A stretch of 61,222 nt of DNA, filler included, from Sluysia triapertura (Eukaryota): NCBI GenBank assembly GCA_046118255.1. It is 5 parts of 5 records of this genome, joined end to end, with 100 filler letters (N's around TTAATTAATTAA, not from the genome) between each part and the next. Parts side by side here need not be neighbours in the genome. Positions count along the whole stretch, not along the records: positions 23,588 to 36,632 come from JBJNIA010063417.1; 4 more parts are not named here. One strand, written 5' to 3'. The translations under genes were made by a program, and so were the position numbers. Positions 1-57,470 of the stretch are shown piece after piece. The number at the start of each line of letters is the position of its first letter. The stretch's first letter is position 1. Below the pieces are notes generated by a model. The model had not been told where the DNA came from. It was given only the letters and a program-made list of their open reading frames with translations, and made no database searches.

Positions 1-3000
1 TAATTTTAAATTCTATTCTTGCTTTTATTGGCAACCAATGTAATTCTTTGAGATAGGGTGTTATATGAGATCTTCTTGCAACTTGGAGAATTAGTCTTGT
101 TGCTTGATTAATTATTAATTGTAATTTTTTCACTTTTCTATTGATGATTTTGATAGTCAATATTGATTAGAATATAGTAAAAATGTTAAATTTTTGGAAA
201 GTTGTCTGTTATCAAATGGAACATTCATGCGAATTGTGTCTTTCTTCTAAATTTATTATGAAACTTGTCGTTATTCGAAATGACGTCATGGCAGATTATT
301 TGTCATTATATCATTTAAAAGAAGGCACTTATTCGCTAATAAAAGATGCTTTAAATAGTAGTAATGCATTATCTTCTATTTTACCGAACAATTATAGTAA
401 TGGACAATTTGTCCAAGGAAATTCCTATATTAAAGGTTTCAGATGATATGAGCAACATAACAAATGAACTGAATTAAAAGTTAATATCGAATGAATATTA
501 TAAAATGAATCTTATAAAATTAATAAATGTAATGATGAAATTTGAATGACATAAAAAATGGGAAATAATATAATAATAATTATATACCAAGGAATGAAAT
601 TTTAAAATGATTAAAATGAATAATGAACTTTTAATGTATGATAAATAGAATTATAAAATGTAAGTAATATAATCATAATATGAGTAAAATTTATACAATA
701 AATTTTAATGCTGTTATAATGAAACTAATGTAAACAATTTTCTAATATACACAATAATTTGTGAATAAAATTTGGGCAATTAATTTGTATAAACAGTTTA
801 ATAATAATTCTCATACAAGAATATAATACCACATAAACATCATATTTCATGATATCCCTTAACTAAAGAACATTATTATTTATCATTCGATTGCCGATAT
901 CGTTTGTATTTCTGTTTAATATTACATTGTTTGTATGATGAGTAACAGTTTTCTTTCCTTTATTTGATGGATTGAGAGGAATAAGGTTTGGAAAGCTTCA
1001 ATTAATAATTTATCTAGCATTTCTATCTTTAAGAGTAGAGACAGATCAAATTCTTACTCTCAGAATAAATTCAAAAAAAGATATTAAATAAGTTAAATAA
1101 GAGCTAGTTAGAAATAGAGAGAGCATTAATCTTATGGAAACTGATTTAAATAAGAAAGTTAGACAAAACATCGTTTATAATAAGACTTTTAAAGTTCAGA
1201 AAAGAATAAACTCAAAATAATGCAAAAGAGTAATTAAAGAGGTACAAAGTTTAGTTTTGCAACAATTACAACAAAGTCTATAGGCTAATACCAAGACGAA
1301 AGTTTTATATCAAAATAGAAAGTTATAATGAATAAATTTTAAGATTAACAAAATTTAAAACCCACTAAAAATAGAGACGTTAGACTAATTAAAACATAAC
1401 AAATAACTATAATAATCCTTAAAAAATAACTATTAAAATATTTACAAAAATCATTAACTTTAAGATATTGTTATTAAAAAAATATATAATAATAACTTTC
1501 GAAAGTGTTTTAAATATTTTTGTCTTGTCGTATCTGGGATCGCTCGTTCACTTGTCGTAGATGGAACGATGGAAGTGCAAAAATTTGATTGCCTAGATTC
1601 CTAACACTTAAAAAACGTTAAAATTCAAGCTCTTCTTAAAATCAAATAATATAAACTGAACTCACTAAAAGTTTATATATCAAATGTAAGTAACAAATAC
1701 AAAGTCTACAAAATAGTTCGAATAATATTCACAATATAAAATGTATCACACGTAGTTATATTTAGGGTGCTTACAAACTTCCTTTAAGATTAAATTTAAA
1801 TTTAGCACTTTAGTTATTTTAAATGTTATTCTGATGAAAATTCAGTCAAAATCAAATATCAATGTATTTTAAATTGTAAAATGTCAATTATTCATATACC
1901 TTGACTTGGATATAATAAATACCTTCAACTCGAACAGTAATAGAAACCAAATCGAAACTTGAAACCAAATCAATACCAGATTAAATATTAAACTTATTTG
2001 TTTATTATTATGTTACTAAATTTTATATGTAGAGTGATTAATTTAAATTTTATATAATAATTAATCTAAATTGGAAATGAAGATTAAGCTAAATTTGAAA
2101 TGAATTTTTATTTTATTTTATTTACAATATAAAACACTAAAAATGTGTTAACTAAATTGTATCAAATAATTAAGATATTTTAGAAAGCAGTAAAAATCAA
2201 TTCACGAAAATAATAATCAAAGTGCAATTATAATTAAATTATTACTTATATTAATATTAAGTTTATTAATATGTCAGTATAAACAAGAAAATAAGGATCA
2301 AATAACAACAAAATAACAATAAGTAAAAGAATATATATGCTTGACACAAAAAATAATAATAATCACAGTAGTTAAAGGCTTAGATCAAACTCAAAGTGCC
2401 AGCAAATGAAATGATGTCGTGAAAGCAAAATCTATCAAAGTATTTTCTATATTGCAATTTATATGCTATAGCAAATTTATATCAGTCTTAATATTACAGC
2501 CACATTTACATCTGTCTTAATTTTCTTCTACAATTTATGATTTTGCACTGTTATTGTGTTCTTTCTTATTCTATGCAGCTTCTTTCTTAGCTAATTAAGT
2601 ATGAGTTTTTATTATTTTTTAAATTTATTTATGAATTGCTTCTTTTTCATTTTCAAATGCCTAATATTCATGAGTTAAAAGAAATTTTAACAAACTTGAA
2701 ATTTTAGAATATTCAAAGTTAAAATAAAGTTATTATGAAAATAATTAAACAAAACGATATTGTTACAGAAATAATGAGCCCATAAAATAGAACAATTAAT
2801 AATGTAAACGAATGAAATAATGGAATTATCAAATAATCTAATAATGAAACTATCATTGTATAATAAAAGAATGGAGAAATAGAACTAATTGTTATTATTG
2901 TACACTAGGAAAATAAATTTCTCTATAGTAAAAACTATTGGCATTATAAAAATAATTCGTTGTTATTATTATACAATAGAAGAATGAGTAATTAACGAAA

Positions 3001-4929
3001 TTATTATTATTATTATTATATAAACAATTTTATATCAGTTACAAAAGTGATTATTTATAACATAAAAATTCCATTTTGCACAAAGCATTAATACTATAAA
3101 TAGACGTAGATAATTGATTTGAAAAGGTATTATTTCGCATTAATTTACAAAGATAATTGATTGGAAAAGTTTTGCAAAGTTATAATTTGGTATTTACAAT
3201 AATATTCGATTTAACGATAAATTCACAAAACTATTAATTTTTTTAGTGGTATCAGATTAATATTTAATTAAATAATTTAATAACTTTAAATTCTTTTTAA
3301 AGTTGTGTAACATAATTACGTGCGGTATTCATTGTTACATTTTCATTTGATAAATTGTCTATAATCGTATTACTAAACTTTTTTGCCATTTGAATATATA
3401 AATTTTCAGTTAACCTAGTTTATTTTATTTTGAACTAAATGAGATAATTTGAATTTTAAACACATTAGATAGGATTGCACTTCCATATTTTCCATCAGAG
3501 TAACTTAATATTTGTTAGATAATGATAAATGTTTGAGTAACCCGATTAAGAGTAAGGAGTTTAAATCGTATTAGGTAGCAAAAAGTAAATTAAGACAACT
3601 TAAAGATACAAAGTAATATAACAAATGTTTTGTGATAAAACTTAATGTGTGCCATTTTAACATTGTTACCAAAATTTAAAAAAAGAACTTAATGTATTTC
3701 ATATTAAAATATCACTGCTGCCATTGATCTCAAGAATAAGTAACTGAAAACGATTGTATATTTTAATCCAATATTCTTAAAATGATGACAATGATGAAGA
3801 TCAAAGACAAAATAATGTGAAAATATTATAAGTATTAACCGCTATTAAGATGTTCTACAAGTATTGCATCATTTTCGAAAAAACTATTTTCTATTCGAAC
3901 TACGTACGATATAAATACCATTTAAATATGTTGGGATTAGTGAAGAATAATGGTAGATGTAAGGGCCAAAACTAAGAATAACAGAATAGGTTCAACATTA
4001 TTAAAGAACTAAGACGAGGGATTATGATGAACTGCAATGGTAAGATAACCATAAGAAATATTTAAATATTTAAATCGAAATAAAATAATGAGATACGAAA
4101 AAATAACTGTAAAAGGCTTTATTTGTTAAACACTAAAGTACAATTGTTAATTAACTTAATTAAAATTTATTTAATTTAATAACTCAATAGAAATGTTTAC
4201 TCATGATATAAAAATATTAAATTTAGTGTATAATGTTGAGTTTTATTATTGGTTTTAATGATGAAGTATTGCGAAGCAAGTCAACATAAGATGACGTGAA
4301 AATTAGTTATTTTAATTAATTTTGTAATTTAAAATTAAAGATTAAATATGTTCTAAGTATTAATAAAGTATATATCAAATTTATGTTTATAAAGATATAA
4401 ATTCAAATATGTTATTCAACTTGATGTGCGACTTACGGTTGACGCATAACGCATTATTGCAAAATACTCCTGTGAGAAATAGATTTATTATTTTATAAAT
4501 TTTATTTCAGATTAAGTTGATAAATTACGTTATTGGTATAATAGCAATATAACTGTAACGTAAGCATTAATGCATTATGTATATTTTATTTTATTTTAGA
4601 TATTTTATTTTGATATTTTATTTTAAATATTATTTAATTATTGATGTATTATAAATATTAAATTATTAGTGTATTAAAAATTATTAAATTTAAAATAATA
4701 TATTTATTAAAAATATTAAATTATTAATGTAATAAAAATTATTAAATTTAACAAATATATTATTTTAATTATTAAATTACTAAAATTACTAAAAATAAGG
4801 TTTAGAAACACTATAAATATAGTTTCAAAGAGCTACACAATATAGTTTTAAAGTCTAAAACTTACTGATTTTAGTAACCTATTTATAGCTCGATAAACGA
4901 AAATTATTTTCAAAAACATTCGAAACAGT

Positions 4930-9502: not shown

Positions 9503-10560
9503 ATGTATTCAAGTACCTGTGAATATAAGTTATCTAAAATTAATGATGAACTAGAAAAACAATTAGAAAGAGAAATCGAAAAATTTAGGAAGCCAGATGG
9601 ATGTTTAAAACTAGTATCGGTTTTAATTGATGACTCTACAACATTAATTAATAATTACAGATCATTCATCGAATCACTTCAAGATTTAAAAGTACATAAT
9701 TACGAATTTTTAGATTTATCATCGCATTCCAGGTCATCTTATTCGATTTTCTCGTTACGCAATAATCAAACTTTAAAGTATGAAAGAGTACCATGGCAAA
9801 ATGAATCAAAATGTGAAATTCAGCCTCAAATAGTTAAGGTAATGACTGGTGAAATGCTGGTTAATTTTTTGTCACCCGAATGAGAGAATGCATCGAACGT
9901 TTCCTCGAAATTATAAAACTTGACGATATATTTGGAATTGTTAGATCAAACAATAAAAAATTAACATTAGTTGTTATTAATTTGGAATATGAAATTAAAC
10001 AGGTATTGGGGTAAAGAGACCTTAAGTGCCATTTGGTAAAATTGACTAAAATAAAATAAAATTGTTAGACGGGGCTGAAAGTTCAGTGGTAGACATCGAA
10101 CTGCGCAGCGAAAGGTCCGAGTTCGATCTCCAGTCAGTCCATTTTATGAAGTCAAACAGAGGTAAAAAAACTAATTCAAAGATAATGCTTGAAGAAATAG
10201 AATGATATTTATTAAAGTTAAATTTAGTCGATAATATTTTTATTTGGCATGTTAAAGATATTAAAGTTGCTCACATATGTTGATATCTTACCAAATTAAT
10301 AGCCGAAGAAGAATTCAAACTTGAACGTGTTTTATTTGATTTCTGCACTATAGTCACTTACAGTCAGTTGCCGCATTATTCCAGTTACTGATTCTGGATG
10401 TATTGATCATTTATGGCGTTCTCCAACATCATTCGCAGCATTTGAAGCATTAATTAATATTAATAGAGATTTTGGTGTTTTGTCTATTACATACGGAAAT
10501 ACAAATATAGATATGCTTAATAAAAAGCTTACGCGAATATTTACGCCGAAAACTTTAAAA
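9503..10560 (+). pseudogene. EME1: EME1 (MUS81 partner, inactive ERCC4 domain) pseudogene
   Basis: Collinear blocks KFRKPDGCLKLVSVLID, NKKLTLVVINLE, YLTKLIAEEEFKLERVLFDFC and IPVTDSGCIDHLWR resemble the EME1 motifs RPEECLKHIIVVLD, KALSLVIVDQE, FTKAVAEAPFKKLR..FSFC and VKVD.AG.GLALVWR as I recall them. Contains in-frame stops, frameshifts and an insertion at 10004-10158. Confidence 0.8.
10004..10158 (+). mobile_element. tRNA-Ala-bearing mini LTR-like element, copy 2 (inserted in the EME1 pseudogene)
   Basis: TATTGGGGTAAAGAGACC...TTGTTAGAC GGGGCTGA..AGTGGTAGA..GTTCGATC..TCAGTCCA TTTTATGAAGTCAAACA. Flanks CAGG/GAGG match at 3 of 4 bases. Confidence 0.85.
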
Positions 10561-11429
10561 AATATTGAAAGCGTGCCTAAAAATTATTCTATGATAGTTA
10601 CGTTAAACACATTATCTTCACAACGTCAATGTACAGTTTGCAAACCCGCAAGTGATGAATTTACAATTTTTCGCGATACACGAATTTAGGAAATTCAAAA
10701 TTATCTTTTACTATGGTGAATTCCGATGATGGTTTTGATTCCTGTTTTTATTCATTTTCTGGACAGCAGAAATGCAAAAGGAAGTGACTATATGCACGTG
10801 TCTTGTAAAGGATTTAGCGCTGAGGTAATGCCAAAGTGAATACGAGTTTCCAGATCTTCTAATTATACAGCTGTAACTACACTTTATTTCAAGCGAAACA
10901 GTCTAGATTTTCTTGAAAATGATGATGTTAGTATAGTTATCGCAATAACTAGAATTTTGTTTTTGTTTTTTCAAACAGCGTTGTTTTATGCTCCCTTTTT
11001 TGGGCTTAAGCTAAATAAAGAGTCTTCGTTATTTTTATAAAAATTAAATTTAATATGGATGATGTTTTGAATTTTAACAATAGTATATAAAATATATGAG
11101 GTTAAAATTAAAATCCTAACACATGGAATTTCTTTTTTCATGAATACTATACATTACGATCAATTGTGTATACATTTTTTAAGTATTCGCTTTTATATCT
11201 CTGTATCGTCCGATCACTCTCAAACTCACAATCAAGAATTACTCTTACACAAAAACCTCTTTGGAAGATTAAACCGACAAAACGACTGACATTTATATGG
11301 TACGACCTGTCAAGCAAAACATAACAATTCGATTAACAATCAACTCTTATTTTTCTTCTACTCTAATCGATCTATTTTTACATGAATCATTTCTTACATT
11401 AAAATAACAATTATTATTATTATTGACAT

Positions 11430-31501: not shown

Positions 31502-32760
31502 CTAAACTTTGGCATACTTTTGACAAATCGTATGGTTATACTGTAAACTCTTCAATGATTGTGGCTGGTAATTCCTGAAATTTTCAATATTCTTTTGACC
31601 TTCAGGAATCCCAAAAGAAAATAACCCTAAACAATGAGATCCAGAGTTCTTGAAACCATTTGTATAATTATTATCGACGTCCAATCCAGCGATCAGTTAA
31701 ACTATATCTACTATTAGTTATTTATCTGCAATGAAATCGTATGTAACTAAACTTCAGTGCAAAATTTCAATTGGTTGTCTTTTATATTTTTGATTAGTTA
31801 CGGTTTTTGTAAGATCATTGCACATGACTTATTTCTTATGTTATTATTACTGTGTATTTATGTAAATTGTCATACCTTAAGAATACATTCACCCTCGTTT
31901 CCGCATATTATTATGGTCCGTAAATCATCATCATTACCATTTCGAATTATATTTTTGGTTTTATTTATGTTAATGTAATTCTTTAACATAAGATATTATA
32001 TGAAAAATCATCTTTATTTAAAATATATTTTTGCAAATTCATTGCAACTTTCTCATATTTTTATATGAAATTAAATATAACCTTTACTATAATCTACATT
32101 ATTAAGTTTCATCTTCATAACTTTTCTTATAATAAAAATAACAGTATGAATTCATTATTTGTAATATAAATTAGCACAAAAATATTAATAAATAATTTTG
32201 TCTGATTTTATAATTCTAGAAATAGTTTCAATGAAAAAAGAATTGCATTAATTATTTGTAATTATGGATCTCGACTAATTCAGAATTTTGATAATTTTTA
32301 TGACATTTCCAAATATATGCCATTTATATTTTAACCCTTTCACTACCAAACCTTTTTTGGTCCCATTTTATAATATTAACTTAATTGGCTAATAACTTAT
32401 GGCCATGGCATAATTGAAAAAATGTAACTGACCAGCTGATTTCACGTCATTCAATAAACATTACACAACCATTGGGACGATCTGATAGGCTGTTTAAAGC
32501 TACTTGGACCCATCGTCCCATTGGTAGTCAAAGGGTTAATCGGTCATTTGAATTTTTTTCTTCAGAAAACTCCACAACTTTAATTTCCTCTTGTTTATAA
32601 TGTTCTTTAGCATTTTTTTATACGAATTTGTTTCATCATCATTAGGATTTGTAGGATTGCACATACTATTTAACACATCAGTATAATGAGCAGAGGGCAT
32701 CTTTCAAAAGTTAATATAACGGATGAATGTATAGCAATAAAAAACAGAATGATATAATTT
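31502..32760 (-). pseudogene. Decayed orphan ORF interrupted by a piggyBac MITE
   Basis: Coding-like minus-strand stretches (MPSAHYTDVLNSMCNPTNPNDDETNSYKKMLK...; ORF 31502-31684) on both sides of the MITE. Confidence 0.4.
32335..32535. mobile_element. piggyBac-type MITE
   Basis: TTAA|CCCTTTCACTACCAA ... TTGGTAGTCAAAGGG|TTAA: 15-bp TIR with one mismatch and TTAA on both sides. Confidence 0.92.
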
Positions 32761-32874
32761 TTATAAGTGTAAAAACATAAAAGTTACCAAAATGTTACCA
32801 AAAATATGTTATTAACAAATATTATCAAAAAATGTTATTATAAATCTAAAATCACCAAATTGAGTTTTTTTTAA

Positions 32875-33188
32875 TGTGAAACTAAAATTGACAATAAAAA
32901 AGAGTGAATTACGACAGAACCATTTAATGTTTGTTTTTGCCAAATTAATTATTAAATGTTAAACTGTTCTAATTGGATGTCTAACCAGGGTGATAAAAAT
33001 AATTAGACAGCCAATAATATACTGAAATTTGTATCATTTGAGAAGCCGACCACTCTCAATGATGACAACAAATTACAAATGCGAAATAACAGTGTCACCA
33101 TTGATAGTGGTAGTTACCATTGAATGCTAATTTTGACACAAAACAAAAATGATAATAAAATGAATAAGATAATAGTACAAATAAAATG

Positions 33189-33253
<65 letters not shown>

Positions 33254-33854
33254 AATGCTATTATTATTATTGTTATAAATCGCATAAACCTTTAAAATTT
33301 ACAAGATCTTTCTGAATTTCTCTTATTATCTTGACATATTATTTAAAGGCTCAGTGTTGATATTGTGAACTTCTGCTATTTTAAATTCATATTAGTCATT
33401 TTCGATGAAATTTAAAGATACGATTGTGCTAATAATGTTGTAGAATAATACGTAATTGTTTTAAATGAATTTTTAGATGCGATTTAATGGTTTTAACTGA
33501 AGATGCGTTTGAATATTGAAAACGTATGACTTAAGTGTTTTGAGATAATACATAAATGTTTTATGTGAATTTTTAAATACACATTGATGTTTTAAATGAG
33601 AGTAATGCTTGGATGTTAGGAGACTGTGATTTGAAATGTTTTGAAAAGATAGTGGTTTAGTGGATGCAAAGAAGATTTTGGTACATTGTAAAAAGGTAAT
33701 TGTGCATTGTTAAAAAATATGATTTTGATTATGTTGGTATTGAACTATGTATTGAACTGTGTAGATTGTGGATTTTGAAAGTGAATATGGTTTTGTTGTG
33801 TTCCAACGAAAAATTTTAATAAGATTTGTTAAAAGTTATAGGTTGGTCACTACA
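32875..33854 (+). repeat. ~1-kb LTR-like cassette, copy A
   Basis: ATTGG/CCAAT boxes, CACCATTGATAGT, (AAT)n, TCGCATAAA..TTTACAAGATCTTTC, TG-rich tract, end GTTGGTCACTACA. Left boundary uncertain. Confidence 0.6.
33188..33249 (+). repeat. (AAT)n microsatellite
   Basis: About 20 perfect units. Confidence 0.95.
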
Positions 33855-36732: not shown

Positions 36733-37547
36733 GCTTGATTAATTATTAATTGTAATTTTTTCACTTTTCTATCTGAAATTGAGTACAACAAACCATTGTT
36801 AAAATCTATATTGCTAGTAATTTTTATAAATACCGTAAATCTTAAAATATTAAATTATTACAAAGACCCTTGTAAAATTTAACTAGCTAACTGCAACATA
36901 GATTTATAATGAATACTTTGCCAACTACACATTTTATGTCGTGGATTGTATTCGAACCCATTAAGTTCACTCATTTTGGTCGAGTTCACATCTTAAGAAA
37001 ACACCATCAGTTGAATATAATGCAATGGCCAACACAATGTGAGCACATAAAATACAAAAAGGCCGACAAATTATTGCAAATTAAATAATATAAGTTTTTC
37101 TGCATTCTTTTAGAGCCCAGATCTTGCACCATCAAATTATTATTTATTCAAAGGGATGTCATATTTTCTTCTTGTGAAAATAAATAATTTAAAGTAATTC
37201 TTTAAGTTATTATTTAGCAATTCTATTAAAATTCAAAACATTCAGGAAATTTGTGTCATGAATTTTATTATACATAAACTTTAATTTTTTGTAAAAATAT
37301 TTCAAACTATAATTACTTATACATTTTATACATAGTGATTTATACATTTTAGTATTTGGCTCATGTGTTTAAAATATGTGAAGCAAATGTAGCCTTGAAA
37401 TATATAAATTTTTTTGTAATGCAACATTCACTATTCGAAATAAATTATATGATTTTAAAAATATATTTTGAAATAATTAAATATTTGTCTGTGTTGTATC
37501 TAGAATTTAATAGGAGCATTGCATTAATTTATTTTTCAAATTTGGTA

Positions 37548-37796
37548 ATGAATGAAATTTATTTTAGTGATGGTGCAGTTAATGCTAATGAAATTTTTGT
37601 TGATGACATTTGTCAAAAAAATGAATTAAATAATGGATTTATTAAATCAATTTTGTATTATATTGATTGTGTAGGAGAAAAAATAGCATGGTTTTTTGGG
37701 TTAACAAGCCCTAAATATCAATCCATTTATAATCACATTAAATATAAAGAAATGGAAGATGAAGAAAAAAGAGATTTAATAATTGAAATTAAATGA
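37548..37796 (+). CDS. FAM177A1: FAM177 family protein (minimal, ~82 aa)
   Basis: MNEIYFSDG...IDCVGEKIAWFFGLTSPKYQ...EMEDEEK matches the FAM177 signature (HFSDG...D..GEK.A...GI..PKYQ...acidic tail). ATG at 37548 is in frame with ORF 37356-37796. Confidence 0.85.
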   Translation: MNEIYFSDGAVNANEIFVDDICQKNELNNGFIKSILYYIDCVGEKIAWFFGLTSPKYQSIYNHIKYKEMEDEEKRDLIIEIK

Positions 37797-39351: not shown

Positions 39352-40053
39352 TTATACAAGTGTTTTAGATGAAGCATCACTGGCTAAACTACTGCTCCTA
39401 CTGCCAACTCGTTCTAATTTATGACTACCACCAGGTTCATCATCATTATCTGAATCGGTTTCGCTGAAATGATTTATGAAATCGGAATTATCCATTAAAC
39501 CTAACTTCATTCGCATTGAATCATTTTCTTTCTGCAATTGTACAATTGCTTCTTCTAACTTAATCACACTTTCTTCAGAATTTCTTTCAAATAAGGCAGC
39601 CATAGCTAATAAATTTTCATACTTATCATTCAATTTATTTTCAATTTCGTTATTAACTGCGTTTCCACCGCTAACATTTCTATCACATTTTGAATTATTT
39701 CCTGACTGTCCCATATATCTACTAACTTCTTCACGATATTTAGACATTATAATCTCAATACCAACTTGATAATCTCGCAATAATTCTTGCAATTCACAAT
39801 TTTCTACACGTAAGTCTTCTAAATTTGAATTTTCAACATTAGCACTAAATCCATCGATATCTGATTCATTTTCATTGGCACAGCAAATTTTTGTAATTTC
39901 AGTAATTTTGTCTTGTAACTGATTAATAGATTTTAATTTCTCGTGAAAATACGATGCATCTCTAATTATTTTTCCTGATAGATCATCACTTGATTTCAAT
40001 CGAACAGTTAAATTTTTAAGGTCTGCTAAAATTTTTTCCATATCACAAGCCAT
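39352..40053 (-). CDS. FGFR1OP2: FGFR1OP2/SIKE family coiled-coil protein (STRIPAK subunit), intronless
   Basis: MACDMEKILADLKNLTVRLK and LEDLRVENCELQELLRDYQVGIEIIMSKYRE match the family motifs MSCTIEK.L.DAK.L.ERL and IR.LQQEN.EL..SLEEHQ.ALELIMSKYR. C-terminal QLQKENDSMR. Intact 233-aa ORF. Confidence 0.93.
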   Translation of the reverse strand: MACDMEKILADLKNLTVRLKSSDDLSGKIIRDASYFHEKLKSINQLQDKITEITKICCANENESDIDGFSANVENSNLEDLRVENCELQELLRDYQVGIEIIMSKYREEVSRYMGQSGNNSKCDRNVSGGNAVNNEIENKLNDKYENLLAMAALFERNSEESVIKLEEAIVQLQKENDSMRMKLGLMDNSDFINHFSETDSDNDDEPGGSHKLERVGSRSSSLASDASSKTLV

Positions 40054-41363
40054 AAAAAAAAATTTAAAAACTACGACAGTAATTTCATCTATAGAATAAA
40101 TTACAAATTTTAATATATTTTTCTAATAAAACGTAATTAAATTATGAATTATTTAATTATAAACTAAAAACATTAAAGTACTTATTAAATTTTTTCGATG
40201 TTGTTTTGTTAATAACTGATAGGAAATATTTTATCAAAGTTTATAAATCAATAAATTTAAAAACATTTCAATTAATATATTTAAACAAATATATTTTTAT
40301 AAAATTTAAATATTTTTAAACGATATTTAAGTGTTTTGAAATAACTATGTATGCCACCTCAAATAAACTAACTCTAGTTATTAAACTTAGATGACAATGT
40401 GTAGAAATTATATATCTTCCATAACTTCAGTTTGATATGACTTTTGTGAATGTACTTTCTTAAATTAAGAAAATTAATTTTTTCATTTAAAAATAGATAC
40501 TGAAAATTATCAAGTAAATAAGTTTATTATAATTATATACTTTATAATTTTCATTATGAGCAGTGATCACTTCAAAATGATTATTGTCTAAGTTATTGCG
40601 ACAAAACATTTTCCATGTAATAAATTGATTTTAATTTATTTTAAAACAAAAATCGATAATACGAAATTTTGACGAAGTGTTTGAGTTAACGACTTAAAAG
40701 TCAATTTTATTTAATTACTAAAATTTAATTATATTCATTAGCGATCATTAGCTCACTTATACAATACATGAAATTATAATTAAGATCTTTGAAAAGATGA
40801 AGTACCGTATGAAATTTTCATGCTTATTTAGTCATTTTTGTTGAAATTTTTCTGTCAGTATTTAAATTGTTTTTTAATAAGTAACACCTTTCGAAAATAA
40901 AAGTAAATACATGTTGAGATTATTATTATTGCTTATTACCTTTACTATCACTTTTACTTGAATTAATTGATCTACGAACATAAATAAATAAAAAATCTAT
41001 ATGTGATCTGAGACTTACAAACTTAATAGCTTGTCCACAGGATTTTGATGGAAGAGTAAGATTCTAAAAGATCATGGAGGTCAATTTGTATTTATACGAT
41101 ATGTATTTTTGCTTGCGTAATGCTAAATTCAACCAATGATTATCGTCTTAAGACTTTAACTGCAAATTTGTATTCCGTTTAGGTCTGTAACTCGTTAAAA
41201 AGCTTTATTTCTTATTTCTTATTTATTAATTAAATATGTCTTTATGTCTTTGTTTAAAATTCGACATTTTTCTGTGGTTTTATTTATTTTTAACCTACAA
41301 TTAAATAAATTTTAGCAGAATTCCTTTACAGTAAACGACTTACAACGTAGAATGTGCGATGCT

Positions 41364-42838: not shown

Positions 42839-42976
42839 TGTTGGGGTAAAAGGCCTAAAAAGTGCCTTAAAAATGAAATTGTTAGACGGGGCTGATAGCT
42901 CAGTGGTAGAGCACCGACTGCGCAGACGATGGTCCCGGGTTCGATCCCCGGTCAGTCCATTTTACGAAGTCTAACA
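42839..42976 (+). mobile_element. tRNA-Ala-bearing mini LTR-like element, copy 3 (best-preserved cassette)
   Basis: TGTTGGGGTAAAAGGCCT...TGTTAGAC, tRNA-like cassette, TTTTACGAAGTCTAACA. No clear TSD. Confidence 0.85.
42889..42959 (+). ncRNA. tRNA-Ala-derived pseudo-tRNA / Pol III cassette
   Basis: Acceptor stem GGGCTGA/TCAGTCC with G3:U70 and A73. D arm GCTC/GAGC (A box TAGCTCAGTGG). T arm CCGGG-TTCGATC-CCCGG (B box). CGC at the anticodon position but the anticodon stem is unpaired. TTTT follows. Confidence 0.8.
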
Positions 42977-46418: not shown

Positions 46419-47551
46419 TGTAGTGGCCAACACTCACAACCTTAAACCTTTTAAAATGTAACATCAAGTAATCATAATTTAAATTTCAATGAAACATAAA
46501 GTCTACAGCAATCACACTTCTCCCTATCCAACCACACCAACTCAATTATCTTAAACAACACTCGATATTAATAACATCTCATTAACTCACACACATCAAC
46601 AATTCGACTAACACTTTTAACCATCCACAGCACAACAAACTCCGACATTTAATCTCGAATAATTCACAACATTCACTCATAAGATATTCTATCAAACAAA
46701 CCACAACCATAATACATAATACAGAAATCATAAATACATCAATATCACTTAACAATGTCAACAAGTACCTCAGAATAGAAAACAATTACATTAAAATCTT
46801 TAACCAAATACACCAAGCTAAATCTACTTCATTTACACATATTCATCACCAACATTTATCCCTAACAACATTATTAATACGTTAAGATTTATTTTGTAAT
46901 CGTCTTTTAAAACTAAAATAACTTTTACCTTTCATTAAGCATCTCAAACTATCATATTCAAGGCTCAAATCTTATTTTTAATTCCAAATCTTAACAAATT
47001 TTAGTAATTTATTCTAGCACTCTTCGTCTTAAGTACAACTCAAGTCATTTCTTTTACCTTTATAAATAAACTTAATAAAGCCTCAAAGAGTTCATTATTT
47101 TAATATGAAGCAACAGCGATAACCGAGGCGAGTATACTTTGTTATCGTTGTTTCTTCACAGCAGTTCATCAGTTTTATGTCTTTTAATTTTATATATGTA
47201 GAAAGTAAAGAAATAAAAAGAAAAAAGATCGTGTAAAAGTTTCAAAGGATATTTTATGCGATCTTTATTTAAATAGTAATAATAATAACAATGTTATTAT
47301 TAATATTGTCAATGAATTATTAATTTCTAATCTCAATTTAATTTTGCCGTCATCATTACTGAAAATGCTGTCAAAAAATGTCATCCGAGTCACAGTAATG
47401 ATGACGGTTAGTAAATTAAAATTAACGTTAATAAAACATATTCACTACCCAATCAGAGAATAGCGTACTAAAAAGTCACTGTTAATACTCTGATTGGACA
47501 TACTAAAATTAGCAAAAATTAAATTTTAAAAATCATTATTTAATAATTACA
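46419..47551 (-). repeat. ~1.1-kb LTR-like cassette, copy C
   Basis: On the minus strand: CCAATCAG/CTGATTGG boxes, AAT-rich tract, TCGCATAAA..TTTACACGATCTTT, TG-rich tract, end GTTGGCCACTACA exactly where the Tigger sequence is cut. Confidence 0.65.
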
Positions 47552-47567
47552 AAGTCTCAATCAGAAA

Positions 47568-48372
47568 ATGCAGACAAAACAAAAAAAGTAAAAGGACATT
47601 TGAGTATACCGAATATTACAAAATATTGAATCCTCGTAACATCACAATGTTTAGCAATCCTTACGATGATAAATTCAGTGATGATTTATTGACATCAACA
47701 TCTAATTTGAATAAAATAATTACTGATCAACAAACTATCTATGAAGTTATAGAAAATTCGAATATTGACAATGAATTAAATCATACTCATCATTACATTG
47801 ATGTTAAACAACATAGTACCATTTCTAATGTAGATTCTGATTTTTTTGATCATGGAAAACATGATAATTTAGTAAAGAAACTTATGAAAACTACTGTTCT
47901 AGTAAACGGAAACGTATTATCATTACTATATAACGATGTAAGTTGGGTGGATTCATCAAATGATACTACATGGATTCGACGATTAACAAGTCACAACAGT
48001 TTTATTGATGAAGGCTCAAAGAGAATAAGCAAAGAAGATGTTTTAGAGTCTTATAAAGTTTACCTTTTTGCGAGTGACGCTCATTTGAAAACAAGTGAAC
48101 GACTTACAATTAAACATAATAGATCACAATCAAATAGTACGTGTTCACGAGAAAGTGGATCACATTACAATGTTGAAGACTTACCAAATATAGCTTCCAA
48201 AACAATTTTGATTAATTGCTCATCAAATAATGATAGCTTTGAAAGAGAAGTACCACTTCAAACAAGCTCACTAATATTACCAAAATCAAAAGATAAATCA
48301 ATTATTTTACGAAGCGAATTAGTATCTCATACTGAACATCCTATTACAATATACGCATTAGAAATTCCAATC
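47568..48372 (+). CDS. Intronless orphan ORF (>240 aa, runs off the contig; possible 5' frameshift)
   Basis: Open from 47626 to the contig end with non-low-complexity composition. ATGs at 47568 (blocked by a stop) and 47648. No recognisable domain. Confidence 0.5.
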
Positions 48373-51181: not shown

Positions 51182-54163
51182 GTAATTTTTTTGGTTATTA
51201 TTTATTATTTATTATTTATTAATTGTTTATAAAGTAAACTTAAACTGTTTTATCGATAATTTAATATATTTACGTAACAGAAGTTAATGACATTGTTGGA
51301 TCTTTGATAAATCATTTTATTTACTCTAAATGAAGATAATTCTGTTACATATGAAACATTAATCAATGTTCATGAGAAAAATCGACGAAGTATCCATATT
51401 TTCTCATCAATTTTTCTAACCCAATTCGTCAAATTGATAAGACAAATATTATCAAAAAATCTAAAAAGAAGGTAAATATAAAGTAGGAATTTTAGAGCAA
51501 TGTAAAGAATATTCTTTGTTCTGAGTAAGGTTTTAATAGTATTCTTATATGAGATCTAGACGAAATTTTTATTTACTTCATTTTCTTTGTTATTTCTTTG
51601 AACATAATGTATTTTAATAATATAATATATTTTTATTATTCTATTCACTATTACCATATTGTTTGGATGTTGTATCATATTTTTGGTTTTTACATTTTTA
51701 ATTTGTGTAAATTTTTCGAGGTTTTTTTTAAAACCCATAAAACTATAACATTTCATTGTTGAAAAAATATAATTTGCAAATTAAACATTTTTAATATTGT
51801 CATTATTGTTGAAATTTATGTAAAAGTAAGAACAATTATATGAAATTTTATTTCACGTTTGCAATTTTTAAACTTAAAAAAATGGCTAAAACACCAAAAA
51901 AAACTTAGATTCAGCTTCCAAAAAATATCAATGTAACAAAGAAAATCCATTAAGGCATTTATAAGCGATGTTCCCTCTAAATTTTGCAAGTATCTGTGTG
52001 CAATATTTAGTGCTGTGCAAAACATGACAAACTGAAATTAATTGTGTGCACAAGAATGAACATATGACAGGAATACAAGACTAATAATAAACTAATAATA
52101 AATTGTCTTTTTGTTTATGTCAATTGTGTACAAACATTCTAATTCTTCTCCCTTCTATCTTTTGTCTATACCCGTACTTTGTACACACAATCTAAATCAA
52201 GCACACCATTACTTTGAATATAGCTCTTAATTCTTACATTCACGTCCAGATGTACATCACCCATTCTGTTTCTTTGCTTGGTTTTAATGGACTTCATTAA
52301 AAGAAGAGATTTCGTCATTTCCAAACTCAAAGTCGCAATCTTATTTCAACTTTGTCACATCTTGAATTTCATTATCTGGAAATGTGTCTTCCAAATGACA
52401 ATACAATCTTTCATTAAAAGTTAAAATAGGTTTTGAATCTATTGAATTATATTTTGCTGCGTATTCCAGAACCGTGGAATTTGATTTTCTCACTCCAGTT
52501 AGAAACTTCCAAAAGTATTGAGACATTTGATTTTTTGTACCTTTCTGCAAATCCACAGCCTTGGTACCATGTGCATAAATTTTTGCCTACAATACAGAGC
52601 ACACCATGCACGATTATCATGGATTTAAGTAGTCCTTGTTTTCAACAATCATAAAAACCATACTTAAATAATTTATTTCGTTGCTAAAGAAATAAAAATC
52701 CCATTTTCAAAACCGATATTTAAAGTTATTTTGACATTGAGCCAGTATTTTTTCTCATTAAGAAACTTTTATACGCTGCCGTTTTTCCTTTGTGTGATCA
52801 GACATTTTACAACTCTGTGTACCTGCTTTATTGTGTGCATTTAAGTAAATATTAAGTAATATATAGAGTCATGGTATAAGATCCATTATGTGGAATCTGA
52901 TAATACTAAAGGTATTATATAAGGAAAATTGAATAGTTATTGTCTTTAATTTGTGAAGACAAAAAATAATGTATAAAAATCAGAATTTTGTAAAACTAAC
53001 TTGAAGTAATACATTTCTAATCTGGTTATAATCAAATAATTTCACATTTTTATTGGAAATAACACAATATTCTACTTTTATTTGAAAATATCACAAAAAC
53101 CTAACGTTTATTTGACTTTTCTTTCAATTAATAATTATAAAAATTAATTAAATAAAATTAATTCTAATAAAATTACAAAATGTTAATTTTTTAAGTGCGA
53201 AAATATTTCTAAATTCGATTAATTAGTTTTTGTTTGTATTTAGTTGTATTTACTTCAATAAAATGATATTTTAAGAACTCTTATTTTAAACTGCTTTGCT
53301 ATTTCTGCCGAACGATAACGTATAATCATTGAATAATTGGATAATTAAACAACTAATTTTACAATATAATCAAAATATAAATTATAATTTATTTTTAAAT
53401 TTAAATTAACATTGTTAAAATGATTAAAATAAATCCAAAAATATACCTATTTATTTCCAGATATAACAACAGCAAATATTTTTATATTCATTTTTTGTTT
53501 TGTTTAAATTTTCCAACTCTAGCTCATTAATTTTCATTGGATTTAATATTTGTTTTTGTTGTTATTAATTATTAATTGTAAAATTTTGTAATTATGAAAG
53601 TAAGAATACATTTTGCTGTAAAAGTATTAAAATTTCATTATAGTTTTAGTTAATATTTTCATTTTATTTTTTCTTTATTAATTATTTAATTATTTTATCA
53701 TTTTTTAAAAATAATTTTATAATAATACACCATAATATTAAGTCTAACAATATAAATATCATATACAGGGTGATCAAAAAGTAGGTTTCCAGTTATCATG
53801 TAGACTATTTATTTGAAAATTCGATACTAGAACGGCGGAAATTCAATTTACATGTTAACATGCTCAAAATATCCTCCTTTAACATTCAACATTCTTCTCA
53901 TAAACCTTGTTTAGTTTAAGTTTTGATCTAATATTGTTTAAATTTTAATTTCGTAAAATAATATAAATATTCATTAACTTATTCGGTACATTTAAATTGT
54001 ATTTATTATAATCAGTTAATAATATTCGATAAAATTTACAAAATTTTTGTTTATTAAAAACATTATACATAATTTTAAGTTATCAAAAATTAAAAATGAA
54101 CACCGAGTAGAATAACAATTAATTTTTTTGTAACTTGACTATGCCACGAGATAGATTTATAAG

Positions 54164-55053
54164 TTAATTTTTGGTTCCTCGATATTGCGTGGGTGAGTGA
54201 ACTATTATTACTATAATCGAGATTGACTTGAACATCAATTGCTGTAAATTAAAATTGATTCCGAGATCAAATAGAAGAACTTTTAATCTATCGTGATGAG
54301 TGAGGAAATCTGCTGGATACATAACGTCCTTGACTTCGAAACATGTGTGGCTGTATTTACATTTCTCCCTGTACTTGTGACATTTACCAGTTGGAGTGGT
54401 TGAGTATGGACAAAGAGTCATGCGTAGAGTTTTGTTGTCATTATCAAATGACTTAAAATGTTCAGTTTTCGAATTATCATTTGACTATGTTGTTTGTACT
54501 GAATTTACTTGATCGATTAGGACTACTGAACTGACATTTACTATATCTGTAATAGCTAACTTGTAATAGCTAAATTGTAAACGCAACAATTAATTCACGA
54601 ATACTTTTATCTAGCTTCATAACTTTATGTTAAATCACATAGGTTTGGTTTAAATCTAAATTTGTGATTCTTTCATCATTGTTACAGATCATATTGACTT
54701 CTTTTAATTTGGATGGATAGGATTACATAGTCAAACCTTCTGCACCAATACTTTGTATCTGCATCATTCTAACATAAATTTCATTGATTTGTTTAATAAT
54801 ACTACGTGAAATTCACGAGAAATACCAGATAAAACCAAATAATTATTCTGGTCTCTAGGACATAGAAGTACATCACATCCGTCTTTAAAACTAACATTTA
54901 CTAATTTCTTGTTGTTAACCAAATGAATATCAAAACTGAATTCTAAATTATTATTTACTTGACCGTCGAGTATCAAATTTATTTTCTTAATGCAGTGATC
55001 ATTGATACTGAGCCACTCCAGACTCACTGATGACTACAATGCTATAAATATAC
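54164..55053 (-). pseudogene. Fragmented orphan gene with a C-terminal CCCH-type zinc finger
   Basis: ORFs 54764-55027 and 54164-54421. Motif RMTLC-x9-C-x6-C-x3-H (CPYSTTPTGKCHKYREKCKYSH). Confidence 0.55.
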
Positions 55054-55148
55054 ATTAGAAAATAAGGATTAATGTCCTATTTAATATTGTTCAAAAGTTT
55101 TGATTTTACCGCGATTGTAAAATTTAATTATTAACGATTGAAAAACAA

Positions 55149-56241
55149 TGTAGTAATAAGTTTTATTTTTTTTTTTGTGTGTTAACATTAAATCAATATT
55201 CAGACTAAAAATTTTGTGTCTTGATTGGACGTCCAAAACTAATATAGATCACGATAGTTGCGAAAGAGATTGATTGGTCGTCCAATCAGTCAAAAATAAT
55301 TTTCACAAATAAAATGTTTGTAAGTACAAATGATGAAGAGACAGCCACCATTGATAGTCTCAGTAACTGTCATCAGTAGATAGTCAACAAAACAGCATAA
55401 TTCATTTAATTAAATCTGTTCACTGATTACAGGCCACTTAGTGAGAATAGTTGAAAACAATTAATACTGACAATATAGTAACAAAAATAATGATATCAAA
55501 TAATGATAATGATAATAAATAATAGTAATAGAATAAATTTAAAAACATAAATTCTTGGTAAAGTTCTGAAACAAGATCTTTCTTTTTATTTGTTCTTTTT
55601 CTAAACATAAACTTTTAGACTATTATTCTGAAATGTGATAAAAATGTGATTTTAAATGTTTTGAGTGGAATTAAAGATGTAAATTAATGGTTTGAGTGAA
55701 AGTATGATTTGAATGTTGAAATTGTGGGTTTGAGCCTTGATGGTTTTGAATATCATTATTGTTTGGATATTGTAAGCTTGTGGATTAAAATGTTCTGAAT
55801 AAACTTGAAATTGTAGATTGATGGTTTTAAATGTAATTGTAATTCTGATATTATGAATTATAGGTTAAAATGTTTTAAGTAAAATTTAATGTGTGTTAAT
55901 AGTTTTGAATAAAGAAGTGATTTTTTGGTGTCATAAAATTGTAACTTAAAATGCATTAAATGAGAATAGTTCTGGTGGATCTGAAGGCGTAAAATATGAA
56001 AAAGGTTTTGATATTAAGATAGGTCAAATGTTATGGAATGTGCAATATGTTGAACTAATTTTAAAATGTTTTAATTCGATTTTTAGTGTATGTTTGATGA
56101 TTTTCGACGTCGAATAAAATTTTCTTGCGAAATTTTATGTTTAAAATGTTTGATGATAAAAACAATTTTGAACATTGTGAAGGATGATTTTAATGTGTCA
56201 TGATAAAATATAATTCTTGAAGTATTTGAATGATCACCACA
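55149..56241 (+). repeat. ~1.1-kb LTR-like cassette, copy B
   Basis: TGTAGT...TCACCACA ends. GATTGGACGTCCAA and GATTGGTCGTCCAATCAG boxes, CACCATTGATAGT, ACAAGATCTTTC, TG-rich tract. Confidence 0.65.
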
Positions 56242-56548
56242 CCTTTTACTTAGCAACACCCTAAAAAAGAAGTCTATAGGTGTTATGTGGCCATTCGATG
56301 TTGTCTCTTCTTCTGAACCAACGTTGTGGAAAATCTTGGTTAATGTAGTCTCTTACTGTAGACGCATAATGTGGTGGTGCTCCATCCTGCGAAAACCTAA
56401 AAATGATTTAAAAGATTACATTCATCTTGCATTCACAGAAATTGATGAAAATCGGAATTTGTGCTGCACTGTGTGTCAGAGTGTCCTGGAGAGATTTGAA
56501 GAATGTTGCAATGTTGAAGAAGGATATTTTGAGCATATGAACAGATAA
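56242..56548. pseudogene. Scrambled mariner transposase fragments
   Basis: Minus strand 56242-56390: QDGAPPHYASTVRDYINQDFPQRW..IEWP/TPIDFFF*GV. Plus strand 56391-56548: KPKNDLKDYI...VLERFEECCNVEEGYFEH. Confidence 0.85.
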
Positions 56549-57470
56549 ATTGAATTTCCGCTGTTCTAGTACTGAATTTTCAAATAAATAGTCTACATGA
56601 TAACTGTAAACCTTTTTGTGCCACCCTGTATTTATTTAGCTATACTTTTATTAAACATTAATATTTGTATCAATATCTTTTAATTCGTTTACAACGATTT
56701 TTAATTTTTTTCAATGTAATTTAATATTATAATTCATTTTTAGTTTTAGTTTTTCTATTTCTATAAATAGAAAACCTAACTTGTATAATTTGTATTATGG
56801 TAACATAAAAATAACATAAACAAATATTTTCAAAAAATGCTTTTAAAGTGTTCGCTTTACAAAAATAACATTTCTGATAATTAAAACAAGATGCAAATTA
56901 TATTAGAGATAATCATTATTATCATTAATAATAATTTATACAATCAATATGCATAATAATGTATAATATTCTGAATATATAATTATATTTTAATTTTTAT
57001 TATATTGTCTATATTCTTGACATCATTTATCCATTGTGTTATTGTATTATTATTTCCTAAATTTGACTAAATTACAATAATAATAATGATAATAATAATA
57101 ATAGCTTAAAACTTATTTTTTATATTACTTAGTAACTAAGTAAATGTTGATAAATATAATTATTTTCAACTTAGTTTTATAAGATTATAATCAAATAGTG
57201 CTTGTTCGTGTAGAAGGATAGAAGTAAAATCTGGACGGAGAATAAATTACTAACTTTTATTAATATTTAAATATTTTAATTTTATTTAATTATCTTTATT
57301 ATCTTAGGTATTTGCAAATTATTTTTCTACAATTTGAAATCAAATCAGATTAAATTTTGAATCAAAAATTATTACATTTGTATGTATTTATTATAGCTAT
57401 ATGTATTATTGATTATAATTGGCTAGATTATATTATAAATTAGAACTATTGCACAATTGATTCTCATTAA

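Follow-up and report, generated by a model that had tools for sequence, protein, structure and literature searches.

Host-derived reading frames within the long terminal repeats of a CsRN1-like retrotransposon from Sluysia triapertura

In the yeast retrotransposon Ty1, gag starts inside the long terminal repeat (LTR) at the 5' end and its reading frame crosses the primer-binding site (PBS), and in HTLV-1 the HBZ gene is an antisense ORF at the 3' LTR. The capture of cellular sequences is documented for other systems. According to the excerpts of PMC5131818 considered here, LTR-mediated retrocopies originate from an mRNA that replaces the internal ORFs, which leads to a non-autonomous element, and in cytopathic pestiviruses, as outlined in parts of PMC8310069, inserted ubiquitin lets host hydrolases release the downstream protein. 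Among Ty3/gypsy elements, the CsRN1 clade (CsRn1, PwRn1, AgCR) is portrayed in sections of PMC2582038 with LTRs of 146–381 bp, a primer of the Trp type and target duplications of 4 bp. The family investigated in this study carries pieces of host genes within LTRs of 2–3 kb, in a frame that keeps phase with the primer site.

Our analysis is based on a stretch of 61,222 nucleotides composed of five joined parts of the Sluysia triapertura assembly GCA_046118255.1, hereafter termed the window. The assembly comprises 619 Mb with about 24% GC and is of animal origin, as reflected in the SIKE and FAM177 genes of the window. Three cassettes (copies A, B and C) had been described in an earlier note as units of about 1.1 kb, each located next to an unrelated orphan gene that is read away from it. 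We are close to certain that each of these cassettes represents the U3 half of an LTR of 2–3 kb, in most cases a solitary one, from a CsRN1-like Ty3/gypsy retrotransposon, whose captured sequence we term cargo. The features of the three copies and the host genes of the window are listed below.

32549–33854, minus strand: remnant of LTR A, with the U3 start at 33854 carrying TGTAGTGACCAAC and the 3' part no longer present or recognisable past about 32549
32549–32781, minus strand: start of cargo A, a leader common to L003/L041 (tblastn, L041, E 1e-13)
32972–33015: opposed CCAAT boxes of copy A, a putative promoter-like part of U3
33191–33247: AAT tract of copy A, likewise putatively promoter-like
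33283–33311: core CATAAA..GATCTTT of copy A, within U3
32335–32535: miniature insert in copy A that has inverted ends and is flanked by TTAA at either side, presumably piggyBac-like in light of its TTAA/CCC ends
46419–48372, plus strand: LTR B, from the U3 start at 46419 to the contig end
47224–47258, plus strand: core of copy B (motif match)
47449–47497, plus strand: CCAAT boxes of copy B (motif match)
47530–48372, plus strand: cargo frame of copy B, which stays open for 281 codons as far as the end of the contig and is common to L015, L199 and L164
45936–46418: transposase remnant, taken from its motif to be pogo-like, the host site of the LTR B insertion
53910–56241, minus strand: solo LTR C, complete, 2,332 bp, TGT...AAA; the homology to L057 stops at 53910
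53910–55124, minus strand: decayed cargo ORF of copy C; the homologous frame reaches the LTR end
about 54260–54415, minus strand: Unkempt-like CCCH finger in the decayed cargo of copy C
55224–55286: CCAAT boxes of copy C (motif match)
55546–55581: core of copy C (motif match)
53763–56631: element split by LTR C, which we take to be Tc1/mariner-like, with inverted copies at 53763–53897 and 56498–56631 (87%)
39355–40122, minus strand: host gene of the SIKE family, a single open frame
37353–37793, plus strand: host gene FAM177
10354–10686, plus strand: host gene OST3/OST6

The motif order proposed for the cassettes is present with small gaps. The ATTGG/CCAAT boxes, the CATAAA..GATCTTT core and the terminal YCAC(C/T)ACA are found in all three copies, TGATGAC is restricted to A and B and CACCATTGATAGT to A and C, and the C-poor, TG-rich character of the arm is evident in its final 600 nt (5–7% C, 19–24% G). 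The mutual alignment of the copies holds for the AAT tract and the core, to which it is confined; each copy belongs to a separate subfamily of high copy number, which it retrieves (40 scored among 2,003–2,942 candidates) and which ends sharply at CAC(C/T)ACA. The exact 13-mer at this end, GTTGRCCACYACA, occurs 15,421 times in the genome compared to 20 times for the reversed control. The previously assumed extent of about 1.1 kb proved too short, as the homology continues through the adjoining ORF for 1.9–3.1 kb to a second sharp boundary (66 loci). Of the adjoining ORFs proposed earlier, only 47568–48372 is open: 31502–32760 contains 28–38 stops per frame and is interrupted by the 201-bp piggyBac-like insert, and 54164–55053 contains 13–31. 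Transposase-like frames at 56086–56635 belong to the split element around LTR C.

The orientation of the unit is illustrated by the sequence at its arm end. There, the end followed by CCCC leads into the pyrimidine run TCAGCCCC at 35 of 80 distinct places among the matches listed, which on the other strand corresponds to GGGGCTGA before TGT and thus to a polypurine tract (PPT). The succession of pol, PPT and LTR is found in all six loci that have it (L467, L468, L469, L470, L471 and L228), and L472 contains pol with a variant PPT-like tract. On the opposite strand, PPT and pol precede TGTAGTGG; U3 therefore starts with the TG-rich arm, which reverses the reading direction initially assigned. 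Copies A and B align to tract-linked LTRs and the C-type end carries the tract, the motif considered as terminal thus being the start of U3, with the cargo in sense. Copy A shares 76% identity across 735 nt with L039, which is a 3' LTR after a PPT and gag/integrase remnants, and 81% across 73 nt with the pol-linked 3' LTR of L468. The first 73–76 nt of copy B are 71–78% identical to the pol-linked 3' LTR starts in L470, L471 and L228, with alignment scores of 55, 42 and 36 compared to shuffled maxima of 33, 30 and 30. In two contigs, the PPT complement comes directly after the C-type end, and copy C is tied to the PPT by this end motif only.

Paired copies flanking gag-pol, as anticipated for a retroelement family, were found in L467, which is whole but decayed. 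Its 5' LTR (441–3272) contains arm, core, ATT tract, hairpin and cargo and is followed, one base after its end, by the PBS TGGTGTCAGGAG, presumably a tRNA-Leu-type primer site, and by a leader of about 1.8 kb. Beyond this leader reside a ubiquitin-like domain (Ubl), gag (DUF7041), reverse transcriptase (RT), RNase H, integrase, PPT and the 3' LTR; a protease was not confirmed by Pfam. The two LTRs are about 65–70% alike over only 139 nt compared, and L467 is thus old or a mosaic. Genome-wide, the PBS pattern was found in 452 rows, with overlapping counts, compared to 2 in the control.

Several other assignments were pursued and abandoned. CACTACA is the wrong end for a PBS: beside 53 CACTACA-side ends, no flank is shared except in the pair L008/L039, which are PPT copies, 30 of 529 copies of the end followed by TGG revealed no PBS, and a GC-rich PBS pattern after CACTACA gave eight matches, all unrelated. 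No shared flank was detected at about 45 far ends of the A and C2 subfamilies and 23 of the D subfamily, since junction copies are rare in the assembly, and the contigs of one DNA run yielded nothing further on junctions. None of the 4 and 79 matches to head-to-tail or circle junctions was real, the recurring one being pogo coding sequence, inverted arm pairs as a single element showed no matching duplications, and a coding frame in the TG-rich arm was rejected because stops are equal across frames over 600 nt. A Burro-like element was ruled out as partner, as it has its own different LTR.

Other elements were encountered in the course of these searches. A sister CsRN1-like family (L046, L249/L216, L212) has a different LTR starting with TGTAGGG, and L046 shows the core of a truncated A-type arm fused directly to the RNase H-integrase of this sister family. 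In L074 (695–991), about 300 nt that include an ankyrin-like piece separate a full-length primer-site match from the next LTR start, in either an internally deleted or a nested element. Burro-like gypsy elements with their own LTR are abundant (L235/L250 (G000:C18410), L247, L284–L313); they encode a Monjiviricetes-type fusion glycoprotein before pol, whose end is in frame with pol (L235), and several extra ORFs after the integrase, and positions 13166–13729 of the window (minus strand) resemble their upstream region by eye. The contigs L232–L234, L236–L239 and L248 contain long intact gag-pol(-env) frames of vertebrate retroviral type, unlike the AT-rich genome, and probably represent contaminating DNA from host or food. 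A tRNA-like sequence with an abnormal anticodon is located at 42889–42959 of the window.

The genes described as orphans are, as judged by Pfam, mostly host-derived chimeras. Their pieces include the primase small subunit, a rhodopsin-type GPCR, galactosyltransferase, kinase, KxDL, PEX11, WASH-4, the head of poly(A)-polymerase/CCA-enzyme, cap methyltransferase and Unkempt-like CCCH fingers, with most cargo fragments showing no Pfam match. The genome contains 87 matches to primase and 126 to cap methyltransferase, and one intact parent-like gene was found for each (L138 and L365, respectively). Intron 1 of the primase parent (35 nt) is exactly absent in all 13 copies that span it, and the nine loci that span the next donor all depart from the parent at this point into other sequence, which illustrates that the cargo has passed through RNA; the methyltransferase parent has no coding intron and is thus uninformative in this respect. 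The host origin of the cargo is thereby established. Where traceable (L355, L363), the methyltransferase cargo starts at most about 100 nt upstream of the parental ATG. Within the DNA examined, a recognisable LTR arm accompanies only 7 of 14 primase cargo loci. As to the copies of the window, the subfamily of cargo A (L003/L041) encodes a fragment of a CCA-adding-enzyme/poly(A)-polymerase head, and the cargo of L039 matches that of L185 (E 7e-20), in which Pfam detects PolyA_pol (3.6e-08). Cargo B has no Pfam match, and L199, which carries the same cargo, has no Atlas match. Protein searches by word index gave no matches.

Further variants of the cargo were observed. In the D subfamily (L276, L278, L281, L316–L344), the CCAAT pair forms a palindrome, CCAATCAGAG...CTCTGATTGG, located 160–570 nt before the ATG, and in-frame tandem repeats of the N-terminal methyltransferase piece are frequent. 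An ORF beside a C-type arm in L029 (1385–1948) resembles the post-pol ORF of the Burro-like element and reflects either captured RNA of another retroelement or an insertion into it. A 531-codon open frame at 21544–23136 of the window (minus strand), which combines a weak kinase piece (Pfam E 0.009) with unknown sequence, may be another cargo ORF.

A further feature of the family concerns the reading frame of the cargo, which stays open to the LTR end and keeps its phase across the primer site. In the D subfamily, one phase is open to the far end in all 23 full-length ends, over at least 71 codons. In the last 50 codons, the open phase contains 2.1 stops compared to 6.1 and 8.0 in the other two in C2 (n=21), and 2.0 compared to 10.0 and 5.8 in A (n=11). 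D ends, in phase 0, are separated from TGG by a spacer of 3 or 0 nt in 97 of 100 junctions among those listed, and A/C-type ends, in phase 2, by one base (CA, one nucleotide, TGG) or occur as CCAAA-type ends, and TGG thus falls into the cargo frame for both, a conservation that could in part be due to descent. On the opposite side of the leader, the Ubl is in frame with Gag, with leader, Ubl and gag sharing a single frame of 547 codons in L479. We consider it quite probable that the frame runs continuously from the LTR to gag. In C6804, the TGG of the PBS is located 544 codons from the Ubl match in a single stop-free frame of 640 codons, about 27 of which are on the LTR side, a continuity computed from two tables.

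An alternative, which we regard as unlikely, would assign the cargo to a separate upstream ORF that ends soon after the primer site, with the leader providing a separate translation start for gag and the cargo frame kept against nonsense-mediated decay or to steer re-initiation. In its favour, the frames of L467, L249 and L392 stop 11–13 codons after the PBS, and an unbroken frame from the cargo AUG to gag-pol was found in none of the sequences examined; stops and frameshifts interrupt the frame of L467, and in C20317, C29277 and C35529, which match both PBS and Ubl, the two are out of phase in short and decayed frames. In contrast, the frame of L467 reopens for about 60 codons past its stop, the frame of C6804 spans the distance from PBS to Ubl, and a Ubl with terminal GG before Gag would be most useful with a long fusion in front.

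The Ubl of the element itself scores weakly alone (Pfam 0.014, PDB 0.08). A search of 1.84 billion representatives retrieved 35 relatives, several of which cover both Ubl and gag, with an unambiguous ubiquitin in the corresponding position (P0126, 1e-22; P0147, 5e-13; P0123, 2e-7). All 20 aligned sequences share an invariant GG, including 15 from outside the genome that were chosen from the 35 matches plus one cluster member. An AlphaFold model predicts a beta-grasp with a pLDDT of 76–93 over the domain, compared to 44 in a prediction from a six-row alignment, and Foldseek matches it to ISG15, SUMO and ubiquitin with a TM of up to 0.84, placing a beta-grasp fold with a terminal GG directly before Gag. 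Some relatives have host-like N-termini, among them tubulin C by Pfam and what we assume to be Hsp90-, Arp8- and LRRC47-like regions; these are predicted proteins whose N-termini could have been joined by the gene caller. By analogy, it appears reasonably likely that a host deubiquitinase would cut at the invariant GG and thereby free Gag.

If the frame of the cargo is kept, its residues are not. The dN/dS of the cargo compared to its parent is 0.41–0.77, with 0.52 in a neutral simulation, a value obtained from 20 methyltransferase ORFs that were picked for long frames and whose intactness is thus no independent evidence. Purifying selection on cargo residues is not above neutral, and the cargo residues evolve about neutrally. 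It is thus improbable that the chimeric proteins are selected for a function of their own, be it for host or element, beyond the mere frame. Such a function would account for the low number of methyltransferase matches with stops, which at 4 of 126 is less affected by this bias and compares to 47 of 87 in older primase cargo, and for the CCCH finger that recurs in A, C and primase cargo; it is opposed by the match to neutrality of the methyltransferase ORFs as a whole, by the SAM-binding DLGSGKGG of the parent, which is changed in 20 of 20 aligned copies, and by the large in-frame deletions and repeat expansions that the methyltransferase cargo tolerates. The dN/dS values stem from a young subfamily, in which the arms are 94–99% identical and the ORFs comprise 415–600 codons.

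Solo LTRs are a prevalent form of the family; their ends agree with those of the PPT- and PBS-linked LTRs, and a number of them are enclosed by 5-bp target duplications. Exact duplications enclose the unit in L005, L059, L061, L063, L363 and L398, four of five positions match in L037, L040, L048, L065 and copy C of the window (CCTTG at 53905–53909, CCTTT at 56242–56246), and the flanks are mismatched in L039, L314 and L384. A first blind scan, with 8 of 21 compared to about 6 expected, was unconvincing by itself, and for many copies no duplication emerged. About 15,000 ends compare to PPT/PBS junction rows in the hundreds, and most copies are thus solo or their junctions collapsed in the assembly. 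The same disproportion, together with the TGT ends and the 5-bp duplication, would also be expected if most of these units were non-autonomous DNA transposons of the Ginger2/TDD type, mobile in the absence of the internal region and with cargo from pre-existing retrocopies. We consider this very improbable, because the end repeats measure about 6 bp compared to 45–297 bp in Ginger2 (in the portion of PMC2836005 consulted), the frame inside the unit is free of stops and in phase with the PBS, junctions common to many copies collapse in short-read assemblies, and the integrase belongs to pol and is not free-standing.

We finally dismiss the proposal of the earlier note, that the LTR is read toward CACTACA with antisense accessory genes comparable to HBZ and Retand or acts as a mobile bidirectional promoter recruiting neighbouring orphan genes, since, despite the resemblance of CATAAA..GATCT to a TATA box plus start on the CACTACA strand and the A(A/T)TAAA that precedes 28 of 140 ends by 34–37 nt, by which an antisense transcript from U3 is possible, this orientation of the element is refuted by PPT and pol on the other strand, no PBS follows CACTACA at the ends examined, the ORF shares its strand with gag-pol in L467 and L039, and the cargo is located between both LTR ends, enclosed by target duplications. 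What stands of that proposal is the assignment to an LTR from a large family of retroelements with which variable genes are associated; the ORFs, assumed to be antisense and outside the repeat, are found in sense, within the LTR and in phase with primer site and gag.

Collectively, we consider it probable that a host-derived cargo frame carried by the LTR continues through PBS, leader and Ubl into Gag and that the product is cut at the GG. In such a scheme, the genomic RNA would start after the CCAAT boxes on the cargo strand, the front of a captured mRNA would supply the AUG of the polyprotein, cargo, leader, Ubl and Gag would be translated as one, and a host hydrolase would release Gag by cutting at the GG, in analogy to pestiviruses. 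The capture itself may proceed by template switching, a route that we put forward tentatively and at slightly less than even chances. During first-strand synthesis, RT would copy the long U5 from the primer site, switch onto a co-packaged host mRNA, copy it to its 5' end and jump to the 3' end of the element, by which the front of the mRNA would land behind the promoter of the LTR; pieces could then be stacked by subsequent splicing or additional switches. Template switching on U5 would thus explain mRNA fronts, sense orientation and stacking. As only captures that are in phase, provide an AUG and are free of stops would replicate, the frame would be kept while the residues drift, and recombination between the long LTRs would leave thousands of solo copies.

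It is an even question whether this gypsy lineage represents an undescribed and widespread gene-shuffling clade, in which the LTR acts as a standing gene trap and the Ubl linker discards the host N-terminus after translation, so that any mRNA front in phase could start gag-pol. Such a wide distribution is suggested by public sequence sets, in which the Ubl-GG-Gag module is joined to unrelated host-like N-termini (Hsp90-like, Arp8-like, tubulin, LRRC47-like). If true, a retrotransposon would tolerate and continually renew a host-derived N-terminus of 400–600 residues, with cleavage at the Ubl-GG as a testable reason, and it would have made thousands of solo LTRs in the genome, each with its promoter connected from the outset to a chimeric frame that is open, and together a large supply of raw new genes. 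The pieces, no fewer than 87 of primase and 126 of cap methyltransferase, would also be a trap for annotation, where they would be miscounted as expanded gene families.

In comparison with known systems, the element shares with the CsRN1 clade, in the sections of its description mentioned above, the GPY/F integrase, LTR ends of the form TGT...ACA/AAA/ATA, a CHCC Gag knuckle in two copies, the PPT directly before the 3' LTR and the proximity of gag and pol (PMC2582038). The CX2HX9CX3C motif of Gag was found in five of six loci scanned, and some listed relatives of the element carry the same DUF7041 gag. The two differ in the primer site, which is of Leu type (TGGTGTCAGGAG) instead of Trp, in the duplication of 5 bp in six exact cases instead of 4 bp, in LTRs of 2–3 kb instead of a few hundred base pairs, and in the extension of cargo, leader and ubiquitin fold before Gag (PMC2582038). 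As the Trp primer and the 4-bp duplication are lacking, we file the family as CsRN1-like and not as a member of CsRN1. Ginger2/TDD elements have terminal inverted repeats of 45–300 bp, in contrast to the inverted ends of about 6 bp observed here (PMC2836005, in part). With HBZ as well as with Retand (PMC11963269), the family has in common an ORF associated with an LTR promoter, which here is in sense and inside the LTR. The giant Burro gypsy elements of planarians also encode a polyprotein with host-like domains, including a Ubi2/SUMO-like one, but in the passages on Burro their ORF1 starts with Gag and the extra domains are internal (PMC6431247). The ubiquitin insertions of cytopathic pestiviruses resemble our system in combining captured cellular sequence with ubiquitin as processing signal, and they differ in that a sporadic true ubiquitin in an RNA virus contrasts with a diverged and inherited Ubl before Gag (PMC8310069, in part). 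LTR-mediated retrocopies, including maize Bs1 cited there, are likewise intron-free, partial, multi-gene chimeras re-copied by an LTR element (PMC5131818, in part), whereas our cargo is located within the LTR, is left in solo LTRs by the hundreds and is in phase with gag. In the open-access literature, which defines our scope, we found no description of host cargo in an LTR combined with a Ubl-Gag arrangement. Ty1 finally illustrates the difference in scale, as its coding part within the LTR amounts to tens of bases, compared to 1.2–1.8 kb of exchangeable host-derived sequence in the family described here.
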